A DNA stretch of 64,000 nucleotides from a virus. Lineage: Duplodnaviria; Heunggongvirae; Uroviricota; Caudoviricetes. The number at the start of each line of letters is the position of its first letter. The first letter of the stretch is position 1. The notes under the pieces are model-generated. The model saw only the letters and a list, made by a program, of their open reading frames with translations, ran no database searches and was not told the origin of the DNA. Position numbers and translations under genes: made by a program. Of this stretch, positions 3,819 through 61,281 are shown in pieces. The stretch spans positions 1 to 64,000 of the IMG/VR virus record IMGVR_UViG_2724679538_000004; one strand, given 5' to 3'.

Positions 3819-4601
3819 GTGTCAATTACAAAAGTTCCTGGATGGATAGGATCATCAGCGGTTTCAGAAACAGGGCAACGTTGGATGAGTGCTGCCCGCA
3901 CCACAGTCCAATTGTCCGCAGCAGGAAATATGTCACAGATGGGTGGTAGGTCAAAAGAGATTTACTACTCAATAGGGGCTAATCACAATTATAACAAAGA
4001 CACATTAATATCATATTTACGCTCCGTTGGCTCTACACCTGTAGTAGTTACTATTACAGGGGATTTAGTTTCTATAAGCAGTACAGTCCCTTGTCTTGAC
4101 TTTCCGGGTGACTTATCAAACTCATATATTAACCTCGTAATTAATAGTGGAGTTACCGTATATGGACGAGGTGGTAACGGGGGTAACAAAAGTAATGGTG
4201 CTGCTGGGGGAACTGCCATAAATAATGGAATTGGGACTCGTTTACGTATTACAAACAATGGAGCTATAGCCGGTGGTGGTGGTGGCGGCGGTGCTACCTA
4301 TGTGAAATCAAGTCTTTCAGATGGAGTATATGGTGGTGGCGGCGGCAGACCATTTGGTACTCGTGGTGCTTCTTCTGGCCCCATGAGTTCAAATTCCACA
4401 GACGCTACTTTAACAGCGGCTGGTAAAGGTGCGGTGTCAAAGGGAACTGGTGGCGCAGGTAATGGTGGCAACGTGGGTGCCGCTGGCTCTAACGGATATG
4501 GTGGTGGGACAATGTATAATGGTGGTGCAGGGGGCAAAGCGGTGGCAGGTAGTGCGCCAACATGGATTTCAGTTGGGTCGATATATGGCGCTCGTGTGTA
4601 A
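3819..4601 (+). CDS. gp38-like glycine-rich tail fibre adhesin
   Basis: GTG start with RBS; N-terminus VPGWIGSSAVSETGQRWMS resembles T2-type gp38 (from memory); poly-Gly runs (GGGGGGG, GGGGG) separating variable segments. Confidence 0.65.
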   Translation: MSITKVPGWIGSSAVSETGQRWMSAARTTVQLSAAGNMSQMGGRSKEIYYSIGANHNYNKDTLISYLRSVGSTPVVVTITGDLVSISSTVPCLDFPGDLSNSYINLVINSGVTVYGRGGNGGNKSNGAAGGTAINNGIGTRLRITNNGAIAGGGGGGGATYVKSSLSDGVYGGGGGRPFGTRGASSGPMSSNSTDATLTAAGKGAVSKGTGGAGNGGNVGAAGSNGYGGGTMYNGGAGGKAVAGSAPTWISVGSIYGARV

Positions 4602-4612
4602 GTACTTACCTA
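4597..4612. repeat. motif A copy
   Basis: TGTAAGTACTTACCTA overlapping stop codon of gp38-like gene. Confidence 0.7.
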
Positions 4613-4675
4613 CAAAAATGGAAAGAATTGTGGTATAAATTCGCCATCCCGATTTGACTTTTCATGGAGGAAAAC

Positions 4676-18922: not shown

Positions 18923-18997
18923 GATGGTGTAGCTCAGCGGTAGAGCAGTTGGCTGTTAACCAACTGGTCGGTGGTTCGAATCCACCCACCATCGCCA
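18923..18997 (+). tRNA. tRNA-Asn (anticodon GTT)
   Basis: Hand-folded cloverleaf: acceptor GATGGTG/CACCATC, D-stem GCTC/GAGC, anticodon loop CTGTTAA, T-arm GGTGG-TTCGAAT-CCACC, encoded CCA. Confidence 0.85.
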
Positions 18998-19002
18998 ATT
19001 TA

Positions 19003-19089
19003 GGGGAGTTAGTCCGTAGAGGTAGCGGTGTAGACTGTAAATCTACTGTCATTGCGACTCGGGTGGTTCGACTCCATCACTCCCCACCA
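19003..19089 (+). tRNA. tRNA-Tyr (anticodon GTA), long variable arm
   Basis: Acceptor GGGGAGT/ACTCCCC, anticodon arm GTAGA-CTGTAAA-TCTAC, T-loop GGTTCGACTCC, encoded CCA. Confidence 0.75.
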
Positions 19090-19093
19090 AATT

Positions 19094-19169
19094 GCCGGTT
19101 TAGCTCAGTTGGTAGAGCAGTCGCTTTGTAAGCGAATGGCCAGCGGTTCAAGTCCGTTAACCGGCACCA
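19094..19169 (+). tRNA. tRNA-Thr (anticodon TGT)
   Basis: Acceptor GCCGGTT/AACCGGC, D-arm TAGCTCAGTTGGTAGAGC, anticodon loop TTTGTAA, T-loop TTCAAGT, encoded CCA. Confidence 0.75.
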
Positions 19170-32418: not shown

Positions 32419-32689
32419 AGAATTATGGCGCTTGTTGAGGAAGTCACTCCTCTTACGCACTTTGTTTTGCCATGCCGGCAGTTAGCTTCTGCCTTTGACT
32501 ATTCATGCGGCAACCCCGCATTTCGCCACAATGGGCAATTCACTTTAATGGAATAAACTGGCCGTTGTGTCGATTTAATTAGCATGGCCTTACCATGCTA
32601 ATTTATTCAACTTGTACAATCCTACAAATCTATCCACTCAGGCTTACACCGTCTTCGTTATTGTAGAAATGAGGATCATCAGCGTTGAA

Positions 32690-32905
32690 TCAGCTTAGAG
32701 CAACGACATTTGCTGCTGCTGGGCCTTTAGCCCCATTCTCGATAGAGAATTCGACCTGCTGGCCTTCTTCCAAAGTGCGGAAATTATTACTCTGAATTGC
32801 CGAAAAATGTACAAAAACATCTTTACTGCCATCAGCAGGAGAAATAAAGCCAAAGCCTTTATCAGAGTTAAACCATTTTACTAAACCAGTCATTTTATTA
32901 GACAT
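32690..32905 (-). CDS. cspA: cold-shock protein (CspA family)
   Basis: [38 protein letters not shown] near-identical in pattern to E. coli CspA; long untranslated leader upstream. Confidence 0.85.
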
Positions 32906-33234
32906 AGATATTACCTTCTTAATTTTGTGAGCCACATAGTGCGGCGAGAATTTGATCTGTATAGATTGGGACTTACTTAGGCACTTAAGGAGGAGACTCA
33001 CGAAGAAGGGAAATCAGAAGATAACACTGAACTGAGACTGCTTTACTAAAACTGCTTACATAAGGTCTGTCTTGCAAACCAACGATGCTATTAACGCATA
33101 CCCTTTCTTTTCATGCAACCTTTATTTTTCAAAGATAACTAATTTTTGTCACCGTTGGTTTAGTAAACGTTAACGAACCAGACGATGACAGACACCTTTA
33201 CAGAGAACAGATGCCCGCCAATTGGCGGGCATCA

Positions 33235-38268: not shown

Positions 38269-38282
38269 TATGTTGAAAATGT

Positions 38283-38298
38283 ATAAGTACTTACTTAT
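38283..38298. repeat. motif A copy
   Basis: ATAAGTACTTACTTAT. Confidence 0.6.
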
Positions 38299-38534: not shown

Positions 38535-39365
38535 ATGAAGAAAGGTTTACTGGCAGTGATCGTGGCCGCTGTTTGCACAATGGGTCTTACTGGCTGTGAT
38601 CGCGTAGAGCCAGGATACGTTGGCATCAAGGTAAACAAATTAGGTGAAGACAAAGGGATTGGTGAAGTAGTTGGTGTTGGTCGCCAATGGACAGGTCTTA
38701 ACACCGAACTTTACGTATTCCCGACCTTCAAACAAATGAAGACCTACGACGAGCCGTTCACATTCCAGATGAGTGACGGTACTGCTATTGGTCACAAAAT
38801 TGGCGTTGCGTATCTGGTTAATCGTGACAAGGTAACGACGGTGTTCCAGACCTATCGCAAAGGCGTAGACGATATCACCGAATCAGATCTGCGTCAGAAA
38901 ATTGCCGACTCTCTAAACCGTTTGGCCAGCCGTATGACCACTGACGCATTTATCGACGGTGGTAAGGCACAATTGCTGGACAACGCACTGAAAGATATTC
39001 AGAAAGAGATGTCTCCGGTTGGTATTGAGGTACTGAGCCTGTCATGGGTTGGAAAGCCTGATTACCCAAAAACCGTCATAGAATCTATCAACGCCAAAGT
39101 AACGGCTAACCAGCGTACTCTGCAACGTCAGCAGGAAGTAGAACAACGTAAAGCTGAGGCGAATATGCTGCGTGAACAGGCTAATGGTGAAGCTGATGCT
39201 ATCCGTGCTCGTGCGCAGGCAGAAGCAGACGCCATTCGTCTGCGCGGTGAAGCTCTGCGTCAGAACCCTAACGTTATGGAACTGGAAGCCATCAATAAAT
39301 GGAATGGTCAGTTACCGCAGTACATGACTCAAGGCGCTAACACTCCTTTCATTACAGTGAAATAA
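38535..39365 (+). CDS. SPFH/band-7 domain lipoprotein
   Basis: Lipobox LTGC; SPFH-like core and C-terminal coiled coil rich in QRQQEVEQRKAEA. Confidence 0.6.
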   Translation: MKKGLLAVIVAAVCTMGLTGCDRVEPGYVGIKVNKLGEDKGIGEVVGVGRQWTGLNTELYVFPTFKQMKTYDEPFTFQMSDGTAIGHKIGVAYLVNRDKVTTVFQTYRKGVDDITESDLRQKIADSLNRLASRMTTDAFIDGGKAQLLDNALKDIQKEMSPVGIEVLSLSWVGKPDYPKTVIESINAKVTANQRTLQRQQEVEQRKAEANMLREQANGEADAIRARAQAEADAIRLRGEALRQNPNVMELEAINKWNGQLPQYMTQGANTPFITVK

Positions 39366-40217: not shown

Positions 40218-40432
40218 ATTTACACTACGATATATATAAGTTAGCATTTACCTATCATGAAGATATATTTAGAAGCCATCTTGCTTATATTATCAACAAT
40301 GTTTGTCTTGGATTGTATGTTTACAGGTGTAATCCGCAGCGTTCTTTCCCCTGTCAACGAAGTAGTAATCAATTCGTTGGCCGTTGTACTCCTCTTCAAT
40401 TCTGCTTTTAAGGTGATTTACGAGGTAGCTGC

Positions 40433-40768
40433 GTGAAGGCGATAACTTTCTCACTAGTGTTTCTATCATCTTTGGTAATGGCGGATACCTCTGTTTATGA
40501 GTGCGATATGTCAGTTGCCAGTATCAACAAAGGCGCGATCACCAACATCACAAAGGCGCCATATGGCGCAATGGTAGTGGACAGCGGTGACCAGTTTTAC
40601 GTCCTTCGTGATGATCGTGTTTTGTCATCTCCTCATCTTTCGGATCGGAATGGCAAACTGACCGGAGTAGGAGAAGACCACTTCACATACAACAAATACC
40701 AGGGCTTTTATGGCATTCACGCTTCTACAAAAAGCTACCTTTTCGATGACTGCAAGGAGATTGGATAA
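40433..40768 (+). CDS. hypothetical secreted protein
   Basis: N-terminal signal peptide MKAITFSLVFLSSLVMA. Confidence 0.45.
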   Translation: MKAITFSLVFLSSLVMADTSVYECDMSVASINKGAITNITKAPYGAMVVDSGDQFYVLRDDRVLSSPHLSDRNGKLTGVGEDHFTYNKYQGFYGIHASTKSYLFDDCKEIG

Positions 40769-40980
40769 TGGCGGTGACACTGGCAGGTCTGGAAATCGAG
40801 AAAACAAGCGGATACTGGCGTTCCAAAGGATTCAAAAAAGCCAGCATACAAGATCGGCTAGAGCGTGAAGATGGATACATCATCCACCAGCGCAAGGAGT
40901 GGAGAATGGTTGATCCTGAGACTGGTAAGCTCGCAACGAAGGCTCAGACACTCTGGGGTTTATTGAAGAAAATTCACTGA
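40768..40980 (+). CDS. hypothetical protein
   Basis: 70 aa, ATG overlaps upstream stop. Confidence 0.35.
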   Translation: MAVTLAGLEIEKTSGYWRSKGFKKASIQDRLEREDGYIIHQRKEWRMVDPETGKLATKAQTLWGLLKKIH

Positions 40981-48700: not shown

Positions 48701-48720
48701 ATAGGTAAGTACTTATCTAT
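48701..48720. repeat. motif A copy
   Basis: ATAGGTAAGTACTTATCTAT. Confidence 0.75.
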
Positions 48721-58404: not shown

Positions 58405-58425
58405 AATAGGTAAGTAGTTACCTAT
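58405..58425. repeat. motif A copy
   Basis: AATAGGTAAGTAGTTACCTAT. Confidence 0.75.
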
Positions 58426-59214: not shown

Positions 59215-59445
59215 ATGGTCTATCAAACAAACGTTGTAGCGCTCGTTGAGAGCGATTTTCTAGCCCAGGCGCGTGAAATGCTTAAAGATCGCGAGCGGGC
59301 GTTTAATTTGTATGAATGGGCACTCAAATGCCTACATCTTGGCGAGCATAAAGAACTTGTTGAACAGCTGTTAGGTGAGTTGATTAATGAGGTGTTTGCC
59401 TTAAACGTCCAGCTACATGGGCGAGAAAGTAACCAACCCCAATAA
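59215..59445 (+). CDS. hypothetical protein
   Basis: 76 aa; AAGGAAACACACATG initiation region. Confidence 0.4.
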   Translation: MVYQTNVVALVESDFLAQAREMLKDRERAFNLYEWALKCLHLGEHKELVEQLLGELINEVFALNVQLHGRESNQPQ

Positions 59446-59464
59446 TAGATAAGTACCTACTATT
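59444..59464. repeat. motif A copy
   Basis: AATAGATAAGTACCTACTATT. Confidence 0.65.
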
Positions 59465-60044
59465 CATATTATTTATCTTAAGTGATAGGATACTATAGTT
59501 TTCAGTCCATGTACTGGAGACTCGACCTGATGGGTGGAGGGTAGCGTCACTGGCGTCAGGTTTAAAAAAAAGCTCACTACCAGCGTAGAACCGGTGCCGT
59601 TTAGGCGCTGGGGAAGGGGGAACCAGAGTGAGCAGAGACAAGGGTCACTTTATGATTGTCGAGTCTGGGAAGTTCGAGAGGTTGAATCCAGTACTCCCCT
59701 TCATAAAGTGTGGGAAGATCTCGGTTCTGGGATGCTGTCATCCATAACTTCCCAAGCTTAAGCTGGCAGTAGACTTAAGCCATAACTTTTCAGGTTATGA
59801 AACGACCAGGTTGGTGAGGAACTTTTGTACTCACCTCCCTGGGAGGATATTACCTGAAAAGACAACCTCTCACTTCGTTCGAGGTGAACTTCACTCACTT
59901 CGTTCGTTCAGTTCAGATTAATTAAAAACCTCTTCTGGGAAGTAAGGTTTTAAAAAATAAATTTATTATTAATAAGTTATAACACGCACGCGTGTGCGCA
60001 CGCGCGAGGAAAAAATCGGCGCGGCGCTTGATTCAGGAGTTTAT

Positions 60045-60641
60045 ATGACGACGAAGACACCAGCCCGATCGCAAGCAAAAACTCTCAAAAAAGCCAAAAA
60101 CAAAAATTCTCCCCGCACCAATCACACAACGCCTGTCGTAGAGTTCAATCCCCAGCTTAAAACCGTGAAAATCTTTAGTGATGGCTCTTGCCTTAAAAAT
60201 CCGGGTGGTCCTGGCGGTTACGGTATCGTTCTCCAGTATCGTGGTGAGGAACGCGAGTTCTCAGATGGTTTTCATAGCACCACTAATAACCGCATGGAGA
60301 TGATGGGCGCACTCATCGGGCTGGAGCGTTTGAAATATCCATGCAACGTTATTTTGTACTCTGATAGCCAGTATCTGAAAAACGGCATGACACAGTGGAT
60401 GAAATGGTGGAAACGAAATGGATGGATGACTTCTGATAAAAAACCGGTAAAGAATGTTGATCTGTGGAAGCGTCTGGATGAGGCCGCAAGTCGACATAAT
60501 GTTCGCTGGAAGTGGGTTAAAGGCCATGCGGGACATCGTGAAAACGAGATCTGTGATCGTCTTGCTAAGATTGCAGCATTCACTGCCGCTGATACTCCAT
60601 TTAAAAAAGATTTAGGTTTTTTGAATCAAAATAGTAAGTAA
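60045..60641 (+). CDS. rnhA: ribonuclease H (RNase HI)
   Basis: [41 protein letters not shown] motifs; N-terminal basic extension; start set at ATG 60045 after CAGGAG. Confidence 0.85.
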
Positions 60642-60655
60642 GTATTTACCTATTA
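60630..60655. repeat. motif A copy
   Basis: AATAGTAAGTAAGTATTTACCTATTA overlapping RNase H stop. Confidence 0.65.
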
Positions 60656-60783
60656 TTTAGATTAAGGTATTCTGATCACCGTCAGGATGACAATGTGTCG
60701 GTGAGACACAGTTCCAGGATGGAACGGGAAAGGCGGCTGGTTAATGCCAGCCGCAACTCTTTCTGACACTGGATGGAGTCCTA

Positions 60784-61281
60784 ATGGCACGTCAAACCTA
60801 TTTCACTTCTGCAACTAAAAGCAAACGCCCACGCTCTTTACGTCAAATTTTGGCCGAGCTATTTAGCGGTCGCGCTTTGTCACGCCTTGATGAACTGGAG
60901 TCTACCGTTCAGTTGCTGACGAAACGTTTAGATGATCAAGCATCAGTCGTTGCGAATATGGGGGCGATTGTTACCTCTCGTTCTTCACGCGAGGCGAAAA
61001 AAGTACGTCCTTTAGTGAAGGAGAAAAATAACAAGGACAGTTCGAATGGAAAATTTTCAAAGAAAGAGGCTGAAACCAATGGCCTACGCTCTCATTTTGC
61101 TTTCACTGGCGACGGTAGCCGTCCCAGCAGGCCAGAGCCTTTTGATGCAGGATTCTTCCACCACACGTCAGCCGACGACAATTTCCACCGCTCCAGTGGA
61201 GCGTCCTGTCTCTCTGGATGGGATGTCGGTGGATGCGATACCTCAAGTTCATCCAGTTACTCTGGATCATGCTGCGATTAA
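60784..61281 (+). CDS. hypothetical protein (3' portion doubtful; overlaps next ORF in another frame)
   Basis: Good RBS GGAG and protein-like basic N-terminal 90 aa; C-terminal 70 aa low-complexity. Confidence 0.3.
   Translation: MARQTYFTSATKSKRPRSLRQILAELFSGRALSRLDELESTVQLLTKRLDDQASVVANMGAIVTSRSSREAKKVRPLVKEKNNKDSSNGKFSKKEAETNGLRSHFAFTGDGSRPSRPEPFDAGFFHHTSADDNFHRSSGASCLSGWDVGGCDTSSSSSYSGSCCD

Follow-up and report, generated by a model that had tools for sequence, protein, structure and literature searches.

Bacterial and phage RNAs that combine great length with structural complexity are rarely found, and the large RNAs that are known (RNase P, group I and II introns, tmRNA, 6S, OLE, ROOL and GOLLD) are either catalytic or still central puzzles. 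ROOL and GOLLD are large, prophage-associated structured non-coding RNAs (ncRNAs) which, together with OLE and raiA, share a size of several hundred nucleotides (nt), many covariation-supported helices, strictly conserved unpaired nucleotides, a likely pseudoknot and no obvious mRNA target. All of these properties recur at a locus in the 64,000-nt stretch of viral DNA analysed here (positions 1 to 64,000 of IMG/VR record IMGVR_UViG_2724679538_000004; hereafter the window, in whose coordinates all features are given), which very probably carries a structured ncRNA gene. This RNA resembles ROOL, GOLLD and OLE in kind, with no detectable homology. It would be ~450 nt long (455 predicted) and span 59498–59952 on the + strand, its ends being placed by inference and the gene itself being identified by conservation, covariation and the absence of a conserved open reading frame (ORF). 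Like ROOL and GOLLD, it is carried by a temperate mobile element; it differs from these RNAs, as well as from OLE and raiA, in matching no Rfam model, in its hosts, which are phage-plasmids of the Enterobacteriaceae, and in not lying beside tRNA genes, the window's tRNA cluster being ~40 kb away.

The RNA fills most of a gap (59446–60044) between an ORF of 76 amino acids (aa) and the gene for RNase HI, for which the original prediction had offered two possibilities, a structured ncRNA or an element of replication or packaging. Copies were gathered by k-mer scans of IMG/VR, GTDB genomes and metagenomes, and by look-ups of the most divergent homologues of the 76-aa protein, giving 136 that are full-length (89 of 131 unique in one count). 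They form two deep clades, ~68–69% identical to each other: clade A includes the window, SSU5, Cyrano and Klebsiella types, 88–94% identical to the window copy, and clade B comprises the loci that carry our handles L112, L113, L115, L139, L148 and L189. No third clade was found, as a scan of IMG/VR with the pattern of the pseudoknot arms described below gave only further clade B members, and k-mer scans of IMG/VR, genomes and metagenomes for more distant relatives returned the two clades plus chance matches only. A short, isolated match of 27 nt to the conserved ACAACCTCTCACTTCGTTCGAGG block, in an unrelated metagenome-assembled genome of an uncultured Acidobacteriaceae (L118, 5353–5379), reads on the opposite strand as GAGAGGTTGTTATG, i.e. 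a ribosome-binding site and start codon, and is probably due to chance.

Conservation within the family sets the RNA apart from its surroundings. Across its core (59521–59915), DNA identity to Cyrano is 94.4%, compared with 74.5–92.1% for the flanking genes (methylase, 76-aa ORF and RNase H); the corresponding values are 90.6–93.8% and 70.6–78.5% for the SSU5, Klebsiella or Cronobacter relatives, and 68–69% and 63–66.5% for clade B, with RNase H not aligned in the latter. Long stretches are invariant across 50 distinct sequences. Judged from the sequences, this pattern is the opposite of that expected of a spacer.

The gap had originally been described as free of plausible ORFs, and comparison of the lineages agrees: no reading frame is conserved, stop-to-stop ORFs differ in frame and sequence among lineages, and the ORFs of 30–85 aa that occur there are broken by indels and differ in clade B. 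The annotation of Cyrano places a 44-aa ‘hypothetical protein’, CYRAN_81, inside the element, and breakpoints of module exchange adjoin it, which would suit one or more small protein-coding genes, such as CYRAN_81, or a purely DNA-level site for packaging (pac) or recombination. Such an account is hardly credible. Protein coding was ruled out, as the reading frames shift from one lineage to the next and the ORFs of clade B bear no relation to the others; the variation is non-periodic and keeps base pairs, including G-U, on one strand only; and, as regards a DNA site, the breakpoints lie 3′ of the RNA with none inside it, and the terminase small-subunit gene of Cyrano is ~78 kb away.

The RNA does not belong to a catalogued family. 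None of the 4227 models of Rfam 15 matched 59446–60044 at gathering thresholds, permissive searches with both clades gave only chance-level matches to miRNA, snoRNA and hepatitis C virus stem-loop models (E at least 0.06, far below gathering), and ARAGORN found no tRNA or tmRNA in the gap. There is no adjacent reverse transcriptase of the kind that marks a retron or DRT system, the neighbours being the 76-aa ORF and RNase HI, with no PADLOC match; the ‘RVT_3’ label in the Cyrano record denotes the RNase H domain and not a reverse transcriptase. Among the E. coli (PGAP) and PLSDB records listed, the site carries no annotation, and no description of the RNA was found in the literature searched. 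With neither an Rfam match nor a description in these searches, the family is previously undescribed.

Structural evidence comes from a covariation test, in which the RNAalifold consensus of a 15-sequence alignment was set against 500 shuffles and slid controls. Standard pairs were formed in 94.7% of the cells of the 134 consensus pairs counted, compared with 87.9% in shuffles and 34–51% in slid controls, and 40 of the 134 pairs had changed on both sides, compared with 25.8±2.7 in shuffles (none of the 500 reached 40) and 5–9 in slid controls. The same result was obtained with an alignment of 11 sequences. G-U cells are far more numerous than A-C cells (168 against 27), and the RNA is therefore read from the + strand. 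Whole helices have been rewritten between the clades, including CUCAC/GUGAG to CCUG/CAGG, CUGGA/UCCAG to ACCAGAC/GUCUGGU, CUUAAG/CUUAAG to CCGGGA/UCUCGG or GCAGAGA/UCUCUGC, and UGAACU/AGUUCA to GAAACC/GGUUUC. Altogether, about ten helices are predicted with the support of covariation.

The predicted fold opens with a 5′-terminal hairpin (59500–59519; helix 2, with double changes at four of six pairs) whose sequence differs by lineage and which always pairs: UUUCAGU/ACUGGAG here, CCAGUC/GACUGG in Cyrano, CCGGA/UCCGG in SSU5, GAUUUCGA/UCGAAAUC in Klebsiella and GCUGGCAGAU/AUCUGCCAGC in L099. A variable 5′ stem that is always paired is typical of protection from 5′-end-dependent decay. There follow a helix with conserved GGGUGGRGG (59524–59562; helix 3, 15 pairs, four compensatory, 96.4% paired) and a domain closed by GCUCACU/AGUGAGC (59572–59633; helix 4, three of seven pairs compensatory), within which a G-rich segment, GGGGAAGGGGGAACCA (59611–59626), is conserved as GGGGARAGGGRGAAYCA. 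The idea of a G-quadruplex was dropped, since clade B does not have four GGG tracts. A long-range helix joins 59636–59643 to 59929–59936 (helix 8; six pairs, three compensatory, 87.8% paired), the clade B alignment being less certain at its 3′ end.

Inside this long-range helix stands a long hairpin (59646–59710; helices 9 and 10, 10 of 18 pairs compensatory) built of CACUUUAUG/CAUAAAGUG and then GAGUCUGGG/UCCAG.ACUC, which exposes a conserved apical loop, GAGAGGUUG. The loop (59676–59684) is complementary at nine of nine positions to CAACCUCUC (59863–59871), and the two arms would form a probable loop-to-strand pseudoknot (helix 12), with 97% of cells paired; both arms are (nearly) invariant in the two clades and hence give no covariation signal. 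Between the arms lie a hairpin with UGGGAAG/CUUCCCA and an inner stem GGAUG/CAUCC (59711–59754; helices 13 and 15, 100% paired, four compensatory), whose loop GAUCUCGGUUCUGGG (59717–59731) is kept as GATCTYGRTTCTGGG in all lineages; a hairpin with the conserved loop CUGGCAKURGA (59756–59780; helix 16, 10 pairs, four compensatory, 100% paired); and a long three-part hairpin (59786–59861; helices 17–19, inner stems 100% paired, two compensatory).

The pairing originally proposed for this region was of another kind, a long-range duplex between a segment near 59508 and two near 59650–59695. The complementarity is present in the window (AGACTCGAC at 59518–59526 with GTCGAGTCT at 59658–59666, nine of nine, plus GTACTGG with CCAGTAC), but its pairing is not conserved in the comparative data, and covariation rules the helix out, both sides pairing elsewhere. 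The 5′ arm (59507–26) mostly coincides with the lineage-specific terminal hairpin, and positions 59525–26 covary with 59560–61; the 3′ pieces (59658–67 and 59687–96), GTCGAGTCTGG and CCAGTAC, together form a local hairpin that covaries, from CUGGA/UCCAG to CUGGGA/UCCCAG in L102 and ACCAGAC/GUCUGGU in clade B. What complementarity the window shows would therefore be incidental, or else reflect an alternative fold peculiar to its lineage.

Towards the 3′ end, the direct repeats that had been pointed out near 59870–59900 are genuine and slightly longer than first described (13 nt, CTCACTTCGTTCG). The two copies of CUCACUUCGUUCG (59869–59881 and 59894–59906; spacing 25) amount to 1.5 copies of a 25-nt unit, and in both clades the motif CUCACnnYCGUUCGRG is found at two places, the first single-stranded and the other within a hairpin loop. 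The latter belongs to the hairpin UGAACU/AGUUCA (59885–59915; helix 21, three compensatory pairs), which holds the second repeat copy. In Cronobacter sakazakii pFS2 (L004, ~1870–1900) an extra 25-nt unit, CTCACTTCGTTCGAGGTGAACTTCA, lies within the RNA, giving 2.5 copies, which shows that the 3′ domain tolerates tandem expansion. A short tandem repeat of varying copy number (1.5 or 2.5), followed by a terminator-like hairpin and a gene, recalls the ToxI RNAs of type III toxin-antitoxin systems. These are defined by at least two full tandem repeats of ~34–45 nt and a ToxN-family toxin gene downstream. The unit here is 25 nt, most members do not reach two complete copies of it, and it forms part of a far larger fold; what lies downstream is RNase HI or other cargo and not a ToxN-type endoribonuclease, with no PADLOC match.

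The RNA appears to have a promoter of its own. A sigma-70-type promoter is predicted at 59463–59491 on the + strand (−35 TTCATA at 59463–68, a 17-bp spacer, TG at 59483–84 and −10 TAGGAT at 59486–91), from which transcription would start near 59498. Its position is kept in clade A (TTTAcN, 17–18 bp, (TGn)TAnnAT) and in clade B (TTTACC or TTTACG, TGcTAACAT). The window's copy scores below the threshold of a simple promoter scan; it is the sole conserved promoter-like site 5′ of the step in Cyrano expression described below. A copy of a palindrome (TAAGTAnnTACTTAT-like, 59445–59464) adjoins or overlaps the −35, and SSU5 has a perfect palindrome, GGTAAGTACTTACC, at this site. At the other end, a hairpin and U-run with conserved UUCUGGG (59922–59954, + strand) constitutes, by folding, a weak, non-canonical terminator candidate; in the window it takes the form of an A/U-rich hairpin followed by UUUU, and in other lineages a few bases separate the hairpin from the U-run that follows it.

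The palindrome at the −35 is one of a dispersed intergenic set, (A)TAGGTAAGTACTTACCTAT or TAAGTAnnTACTTAT, with ~25–28 sites across the window (1–64000), where 67 matches were counted against 4.3±2.1 expected. Further examples lie at 303–322, 4594–4613, 38279–38298, 48701–48720, 58406–58425 and 60634–60653. The copies flank gene units, often directly 5′ of −10-like boxes or ribosome-binding sites, and may represent an operator, a promoter-associated site or a unit-boundary element of SSU5-like phage-plasmids.

Published RNA-seq of Cyrano lysogens (PMC9928086) places the region 12–14 times above both of its neighbours. In normalised counts for LF82 in LB (supplementary table), CYRAN_81 reaches 117, against 9.5 for CYRAN_80 (the 76-aa ORF) and 8.4 for CYRAN_82 (RNase H); its excess is seen in all 10 samples (log2 6.8–10.35 against 2.6–5.8 for the two neighbours), and the LF82 study listed CYRAN_81 as a ‘moron’ transcribed 12-fold above the prophage background (PMC9928086). 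The excess over both neighbours points to an independent transcription unit, active in the plasmid (lysogenic) state and ending before RNase H, and the ‘hypothetical protein’ reported as a moron would really be part of an RNA gene. The comparative alignment and the expression data to which the original prediction had looked thus both favour its structured ncRNA, through a core that relatives conserve better than the genes on either side, through strong covariation, and through a promoter kept in position and an RNA-seq signal above both neighbours; the Rfam search that it had also suggested matched no family. In the same RNA-seq table, two more ‘hypothetical proteins’ of Cyrano (OV696614.1), CYRAN_43 (40268–40822, − strand) and CYRAN_40 (39144–39356), stand at ~7,084 and ~151 normalised counts, far above the lysogen background; they may likewise be RNAs that have gone unrecognised, or else morons with high expression.

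Across conditions CYRAN_81 tracks the putative repressor CYRAN_45, at about the repressor's level. This behaviour, together with repeated single-stranded motifs that could serve as seeds and an Ant/Rha-type antirepressor gene ~2 kb downstream, would fit an immunity-type antisense RNA or small-RNA precursor that pairs with phage or host mRNAs and holds lytic functions off, in the manner of P1 c4 and P4 CI. P1 c4 and the CI RNAs of P4 and N15 are likewise phage-plasmid RNAs expressed in the lysogenic state; they are ~80 nt long and act through short complementarity within their own operon, whereas the RNA here is five to six times larger. Searches for antisense targets by blastn-short and by patterns of the conserved loops gave only chance-level complementarity to the rest of the 64-kb window, which is ~60% of the phage-plasmid and leaves the host transcriptome uncovered. 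Constraint spans the whole 430 nt and not short seeds alone, and there is no Rfam match, hence none to C4, provided that Rfam includes that family. An antisense role of this type is consequently regarded as distinctly unlikely.

A stand-alone transcript with its own promoter, abundance relative to its neighbours and repeated short motifs also invites comparison with 6S and CsrB/CsrC. Neither is matched in Rfam, and the fold has no open-promoter bubble like that of 6S. In CsrB/CsrC, AGGA motifs occupy hairpin loops, whereas the GGA triplets here lie mostly in G-rich internal loops; a role as a CsrA sponge was rejected on this ground.

The most constant neighbour of the RNA is the 76-aa ORF (59215–59445, + strand), which matches phrog_5343, of unknown function, and of which a homologue lies 5′ of the RNA in all 124 testable copies. 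Its AlphaFold2 model is all-helical, with three helices and a predicted local distance difference test score of 79.9, and has no significant match in the PDB; the protein has no Pfam or PADLOC match. With this protein as query, 28 clusters were returned from 5.8 billion proteins, in which every named source is from the Enterobacteriaceae, and it is 100% identical to a protein of Escherichia fergusonii. The region with its flanks matches 12 phage records, those of Salmonella phage SSU5 and Escherichia phage Cyrano among them, and 687 plasmids in PLSDB, from Klebsiella, Escherichia, Enterobacter, Salmonella, Citrobacter and Cronobacter, all of them SSU5-like and nearly all non-mobilizable and of ~105–120 kb. 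From these matches and the identical E. fergusonii protein, it follows that the window is an SSU5/pHCM2-like phage-plasmid. The element is present in 232 of 5,426 complete E. coli genomes, with 232 of the 234 matched places on plasmids.

On its 3′ side, the RNA is followed in order by RNase HI (PF00075; 60045–60641, + strand), an unknown gene, TerB and an Ant/Rha-like regulator, and the gap as a whole is set in a + strand block of genes for DNA and nucleotide metabolism (SbcCD, a RuvC-like resolvase, NrdAB, ThyA, DHFR, a DnaQ-like exonuclease and a Dam methylase). RNase H is the usual occupant of the position next to the RNA, found in 101 of 115 copies, and it is dispensable: in the other 14 (L005, L006, L062, L073, L074, L119, L140, L148, L162, L173, L179, L184, L185 and L190) other cargo takes its place and the RNA is intact. 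The alternatives include a TIR-domain protein, the GmrSD restriction enzyme, an HNH nuclease, JukAB, the candidate defence protein HEC-08, betT and a probable insertion sequence transposase; the cargo is mostly followed by the same conserved gene that stands after RNase H in the window. The left boundary of the slot is an A-run, AGGAAAAAATCG (60007–60018). At 11 of the loci with other cargo, homology to the RNase H type stops just after this run (AAAAATCG or a close variant) and gives way to a shared CCCATCGYAATGTCTTCAATGTGCCA-like sequence, behind which the cargo differs, and in two Klebsiella loci the break falls a few codons into rnhA. With RNase H in only 101 of 115 copies and varied cargo elsewhere, the RNA borders a cargo and defence hotspot of which RNase H is the commonest occupant, not an obligate partner. 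Two clade B loci (L112 and L113, 4105–4416) have a weak Tad2-like (anti-Thoeris) Pfam match in the gene directly 3′ of the RNase H homologue, a neighbour that fits an accessory, counter-defence neighbourhood.

The relation of the RNA to this slot bears on whether it might act in cis, as a very long, riboswitch-like 5′ leader or attenuator that terminates in lysogeny and allows signal-dependent read-through into the slot. The RNA lies on the same strand as the slot and directly 5′ of it in both clades; high signal in the leader with low signal in the downstream gene is the usual RNA-seq signature of attenuation; copies of the palindromic boundary motif flank the RNA–RNase H pair, with none between; and the hairpin with its U-run and a second, GC-rich hairpin precede the ribosome-binding site. 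The RNA is, however, kept at ~93% identity where RNase H has given way to unrelated cargo, which in part is encoded on the opposite strand, and in clade B the gene is preceded by an additional ~100-nt spacer that contains a promoter-like sequence of its own. At ~450 nt and some ten helices it is also far larger than known leaders, and it matches no cis-regulatory family in Rfam. A leader is thus thought unlikely.

Between the RNA and the slot junction lie a poorly conserved AT-rich spacer (59955–59982) and the perfect 24-nt alternating pyrimidine/purine tract (59983–60006) to which the original prediction had drawn attention, and whose length and position are exactly as it described. The tract is the only run of at least 18 alternating bases in 64 kb (four overlapping 18-mer matches against 0.31 expected, a number that none of 100 shuffles reached), and its potential to form Z-DNA is real on sequence grounds, tracts being classed as Z-DNA-prone from 12 nt of uninterrupted alternation rich in CG/CA. 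Lineages of clade A differ in the length of the tract (~14 to 28 nt), as expected of a slippage-prone repeat, and in clade B it is down to 6–8 nt, only CGCGCGAG or CGCACGCGAG being found; this variation argues against a strict requirement for the Z-form. The tract falls outside the core of the RNA, between the U-run and the cargo junction, and forms the 5′ arm of a hairpin (~59995–60029) that in clade A is GC-rich, with an A-rich loop, directly 5′ of the ribosome-binding site for RNase H. A more fitting description is that of a GC hairpin arm, variable in length, which marks the edge of the cargo hotspot and might serve there as a second terminator, as a 5′ stem of the mRNA or as a junction prone to recombination.

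An RNase HI gene beside a structured transcript also raises the question of an RNA-primed origin, as known from ColE1 (RNA II) and T4 (R-loops), in which a persistent hybrid is cut by RNase H near the A-run and primes DNA synthesis. ColE1 RNA II is, like the RNA here, a structured transcript of ~500 nt with G-rich tracts that lies 5′ of an A-run, here with an RNase H gene near; the tracts are conserved in the RNA, the locus is set among genes for DNA metabolism, and the AT-rich spacer, GC-rich hairpin and A-run CGCGCGAGGAAAAAATCG downstream resemble the ColE1 origin sequence. In ColE1, however, the transcript runs to the origin and depends on RNase H, whereas in Cyrano the RNase H gene directly 3′ of the tract is at background level, and in 14 of 115 copies it is missing with the RNA intact. 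No equivalent of RNA I or Rop was found: there is no Rfam match (RNAI included, if held), and the 76-aa protein, as modelled, has no Rop-like structural match in the PDB. The plasmids carry an IncFIB-type replicon, there is no inflection of GC skew at the site, and clade B has no long alternating tract. An origin of this type is accordingly very unlikely, and the replication or packaging element that had been proposed as the alternative to an ncRNA finds no support, the signal falling before a replaceable RNase H and the terminase gene of Cyrano being distant.

The feature in the gap is thus a new and widespread family of large structured RNA, expressed in lysogeny; it is neither the long-range duplex nor the Z-DNA element of the original prediction, nor is it an origin. 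Beyond the existence of the gene, it is on balance probable that the ~450-nt, + strand RNA acts in trans and binds protein in the lysogenic state. Large size with many helices, a likely pseudoknot, and conserved unpaired nucleotides and repeated motifs are typical of ribonucleoprotein (RNP) or catalytic RNAs and not of antisense RNAs, which argues for an RNA recognised by protein in trans. On this model, a sigma-70-type promoter of its own would drive the RNA, which would start with a stabilising 5′ hairpin, fold into about ten helices and a probable pseudoknot, and end at the weak hairpin with its U-run, before the GC-rich alternating tract. As a core gene of SSU5/pHCM2-like phage-plasmids, paired with the 76-aa ORF at the left edge of a cargo and defence slot, it would give a stable folded RNA working in trans during the plasmid (lysogenic) state, whose conserved unpaired nucleotides and single-stranded motifs (YCGUUCG twice, and UCUGGG) may be recognised by at least one protein. 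It would then form an RNP that serves the lysogenic state by scaffolding or sequestration, rather than being a primer, leader or simple antisense RNA.

Several points weigh against this model. With only two deep clades, most of the double changes go back to one event, the divergence of A from B, with some further events within each clade, and the alignments and the structure tested on them derive from the same sequences. The RNA-seq excess consists of counts on an annotated ORF of 135 nt, strandedness unchecked, and in the same data (PMC9928086) the 76-aa ORF does not rise above the lysogen background. The weakness of the 3′ terminator, which a strict scan did not call, leaves room for read-through or a role in cis, and the order of RNA and then RNase H, kept in both deep clades, is also explained by a leader. 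Conservation of the RNA and of its promoter, structure, strand, transcription and independence from RNase H are established, whereas the exact ends, action in trans, protein binding and biological role are what we infer.

More tentatively, the RNA could found a new class among the large structured RNAs, one that is biochemically active in itself, for instance as a ribozyme, through self-assembly, or as the RNA component of an RNP with the invariably linked 76-aa protein. If so, the dormant phage-plasmid might use it for the control of lysogeny, or for defence or counter-defence at the adjacent hotspot.

Elsewhere in the window, other RNA features were recorded. The tRNA cluster mentioned above (Asn-GTT, Tyr-GTA, Thr-TGT and Ser-TGA; 18923–19902, + strand) was called by ARAGORN, and three of its members were confirmed by Rfam at gathering score. 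A full-length match to the cspA thermoregulator 5′ untranslated region (UTR; RF01766, 185.7 bits) at 32665–33083 on the − strand implies that the phage-plasmid bears a cold-shock protein gene and its RNA thermosensor. Downstream of RNase H, the 5′ UTR (60660–60783) of an ORF at 60784–61281 (phrog_10411, of unknown function) has three AGGAUG-type motifs, namely GUCAGGAUGAC and GUUCCAGGAUGGAAC, for each of which a small hairpin can be drawn, and CUGGAUGGAG, which covers what is probably the ribosome-binding site. These resemble CsrA-binding sites, and a CsrB-like match in Rfam was weak (E=0.37).

The element is among the few loci that are switched on in the lysogen, it borders a slot for defence genes, and its host replicon is clinically common. 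In E. coli and Salmonella, it therefore offers a tractable entry into the role of large phage RNAs, and into how the plasmid state is maintained or exploited by SSU5-type phage-plasmids.

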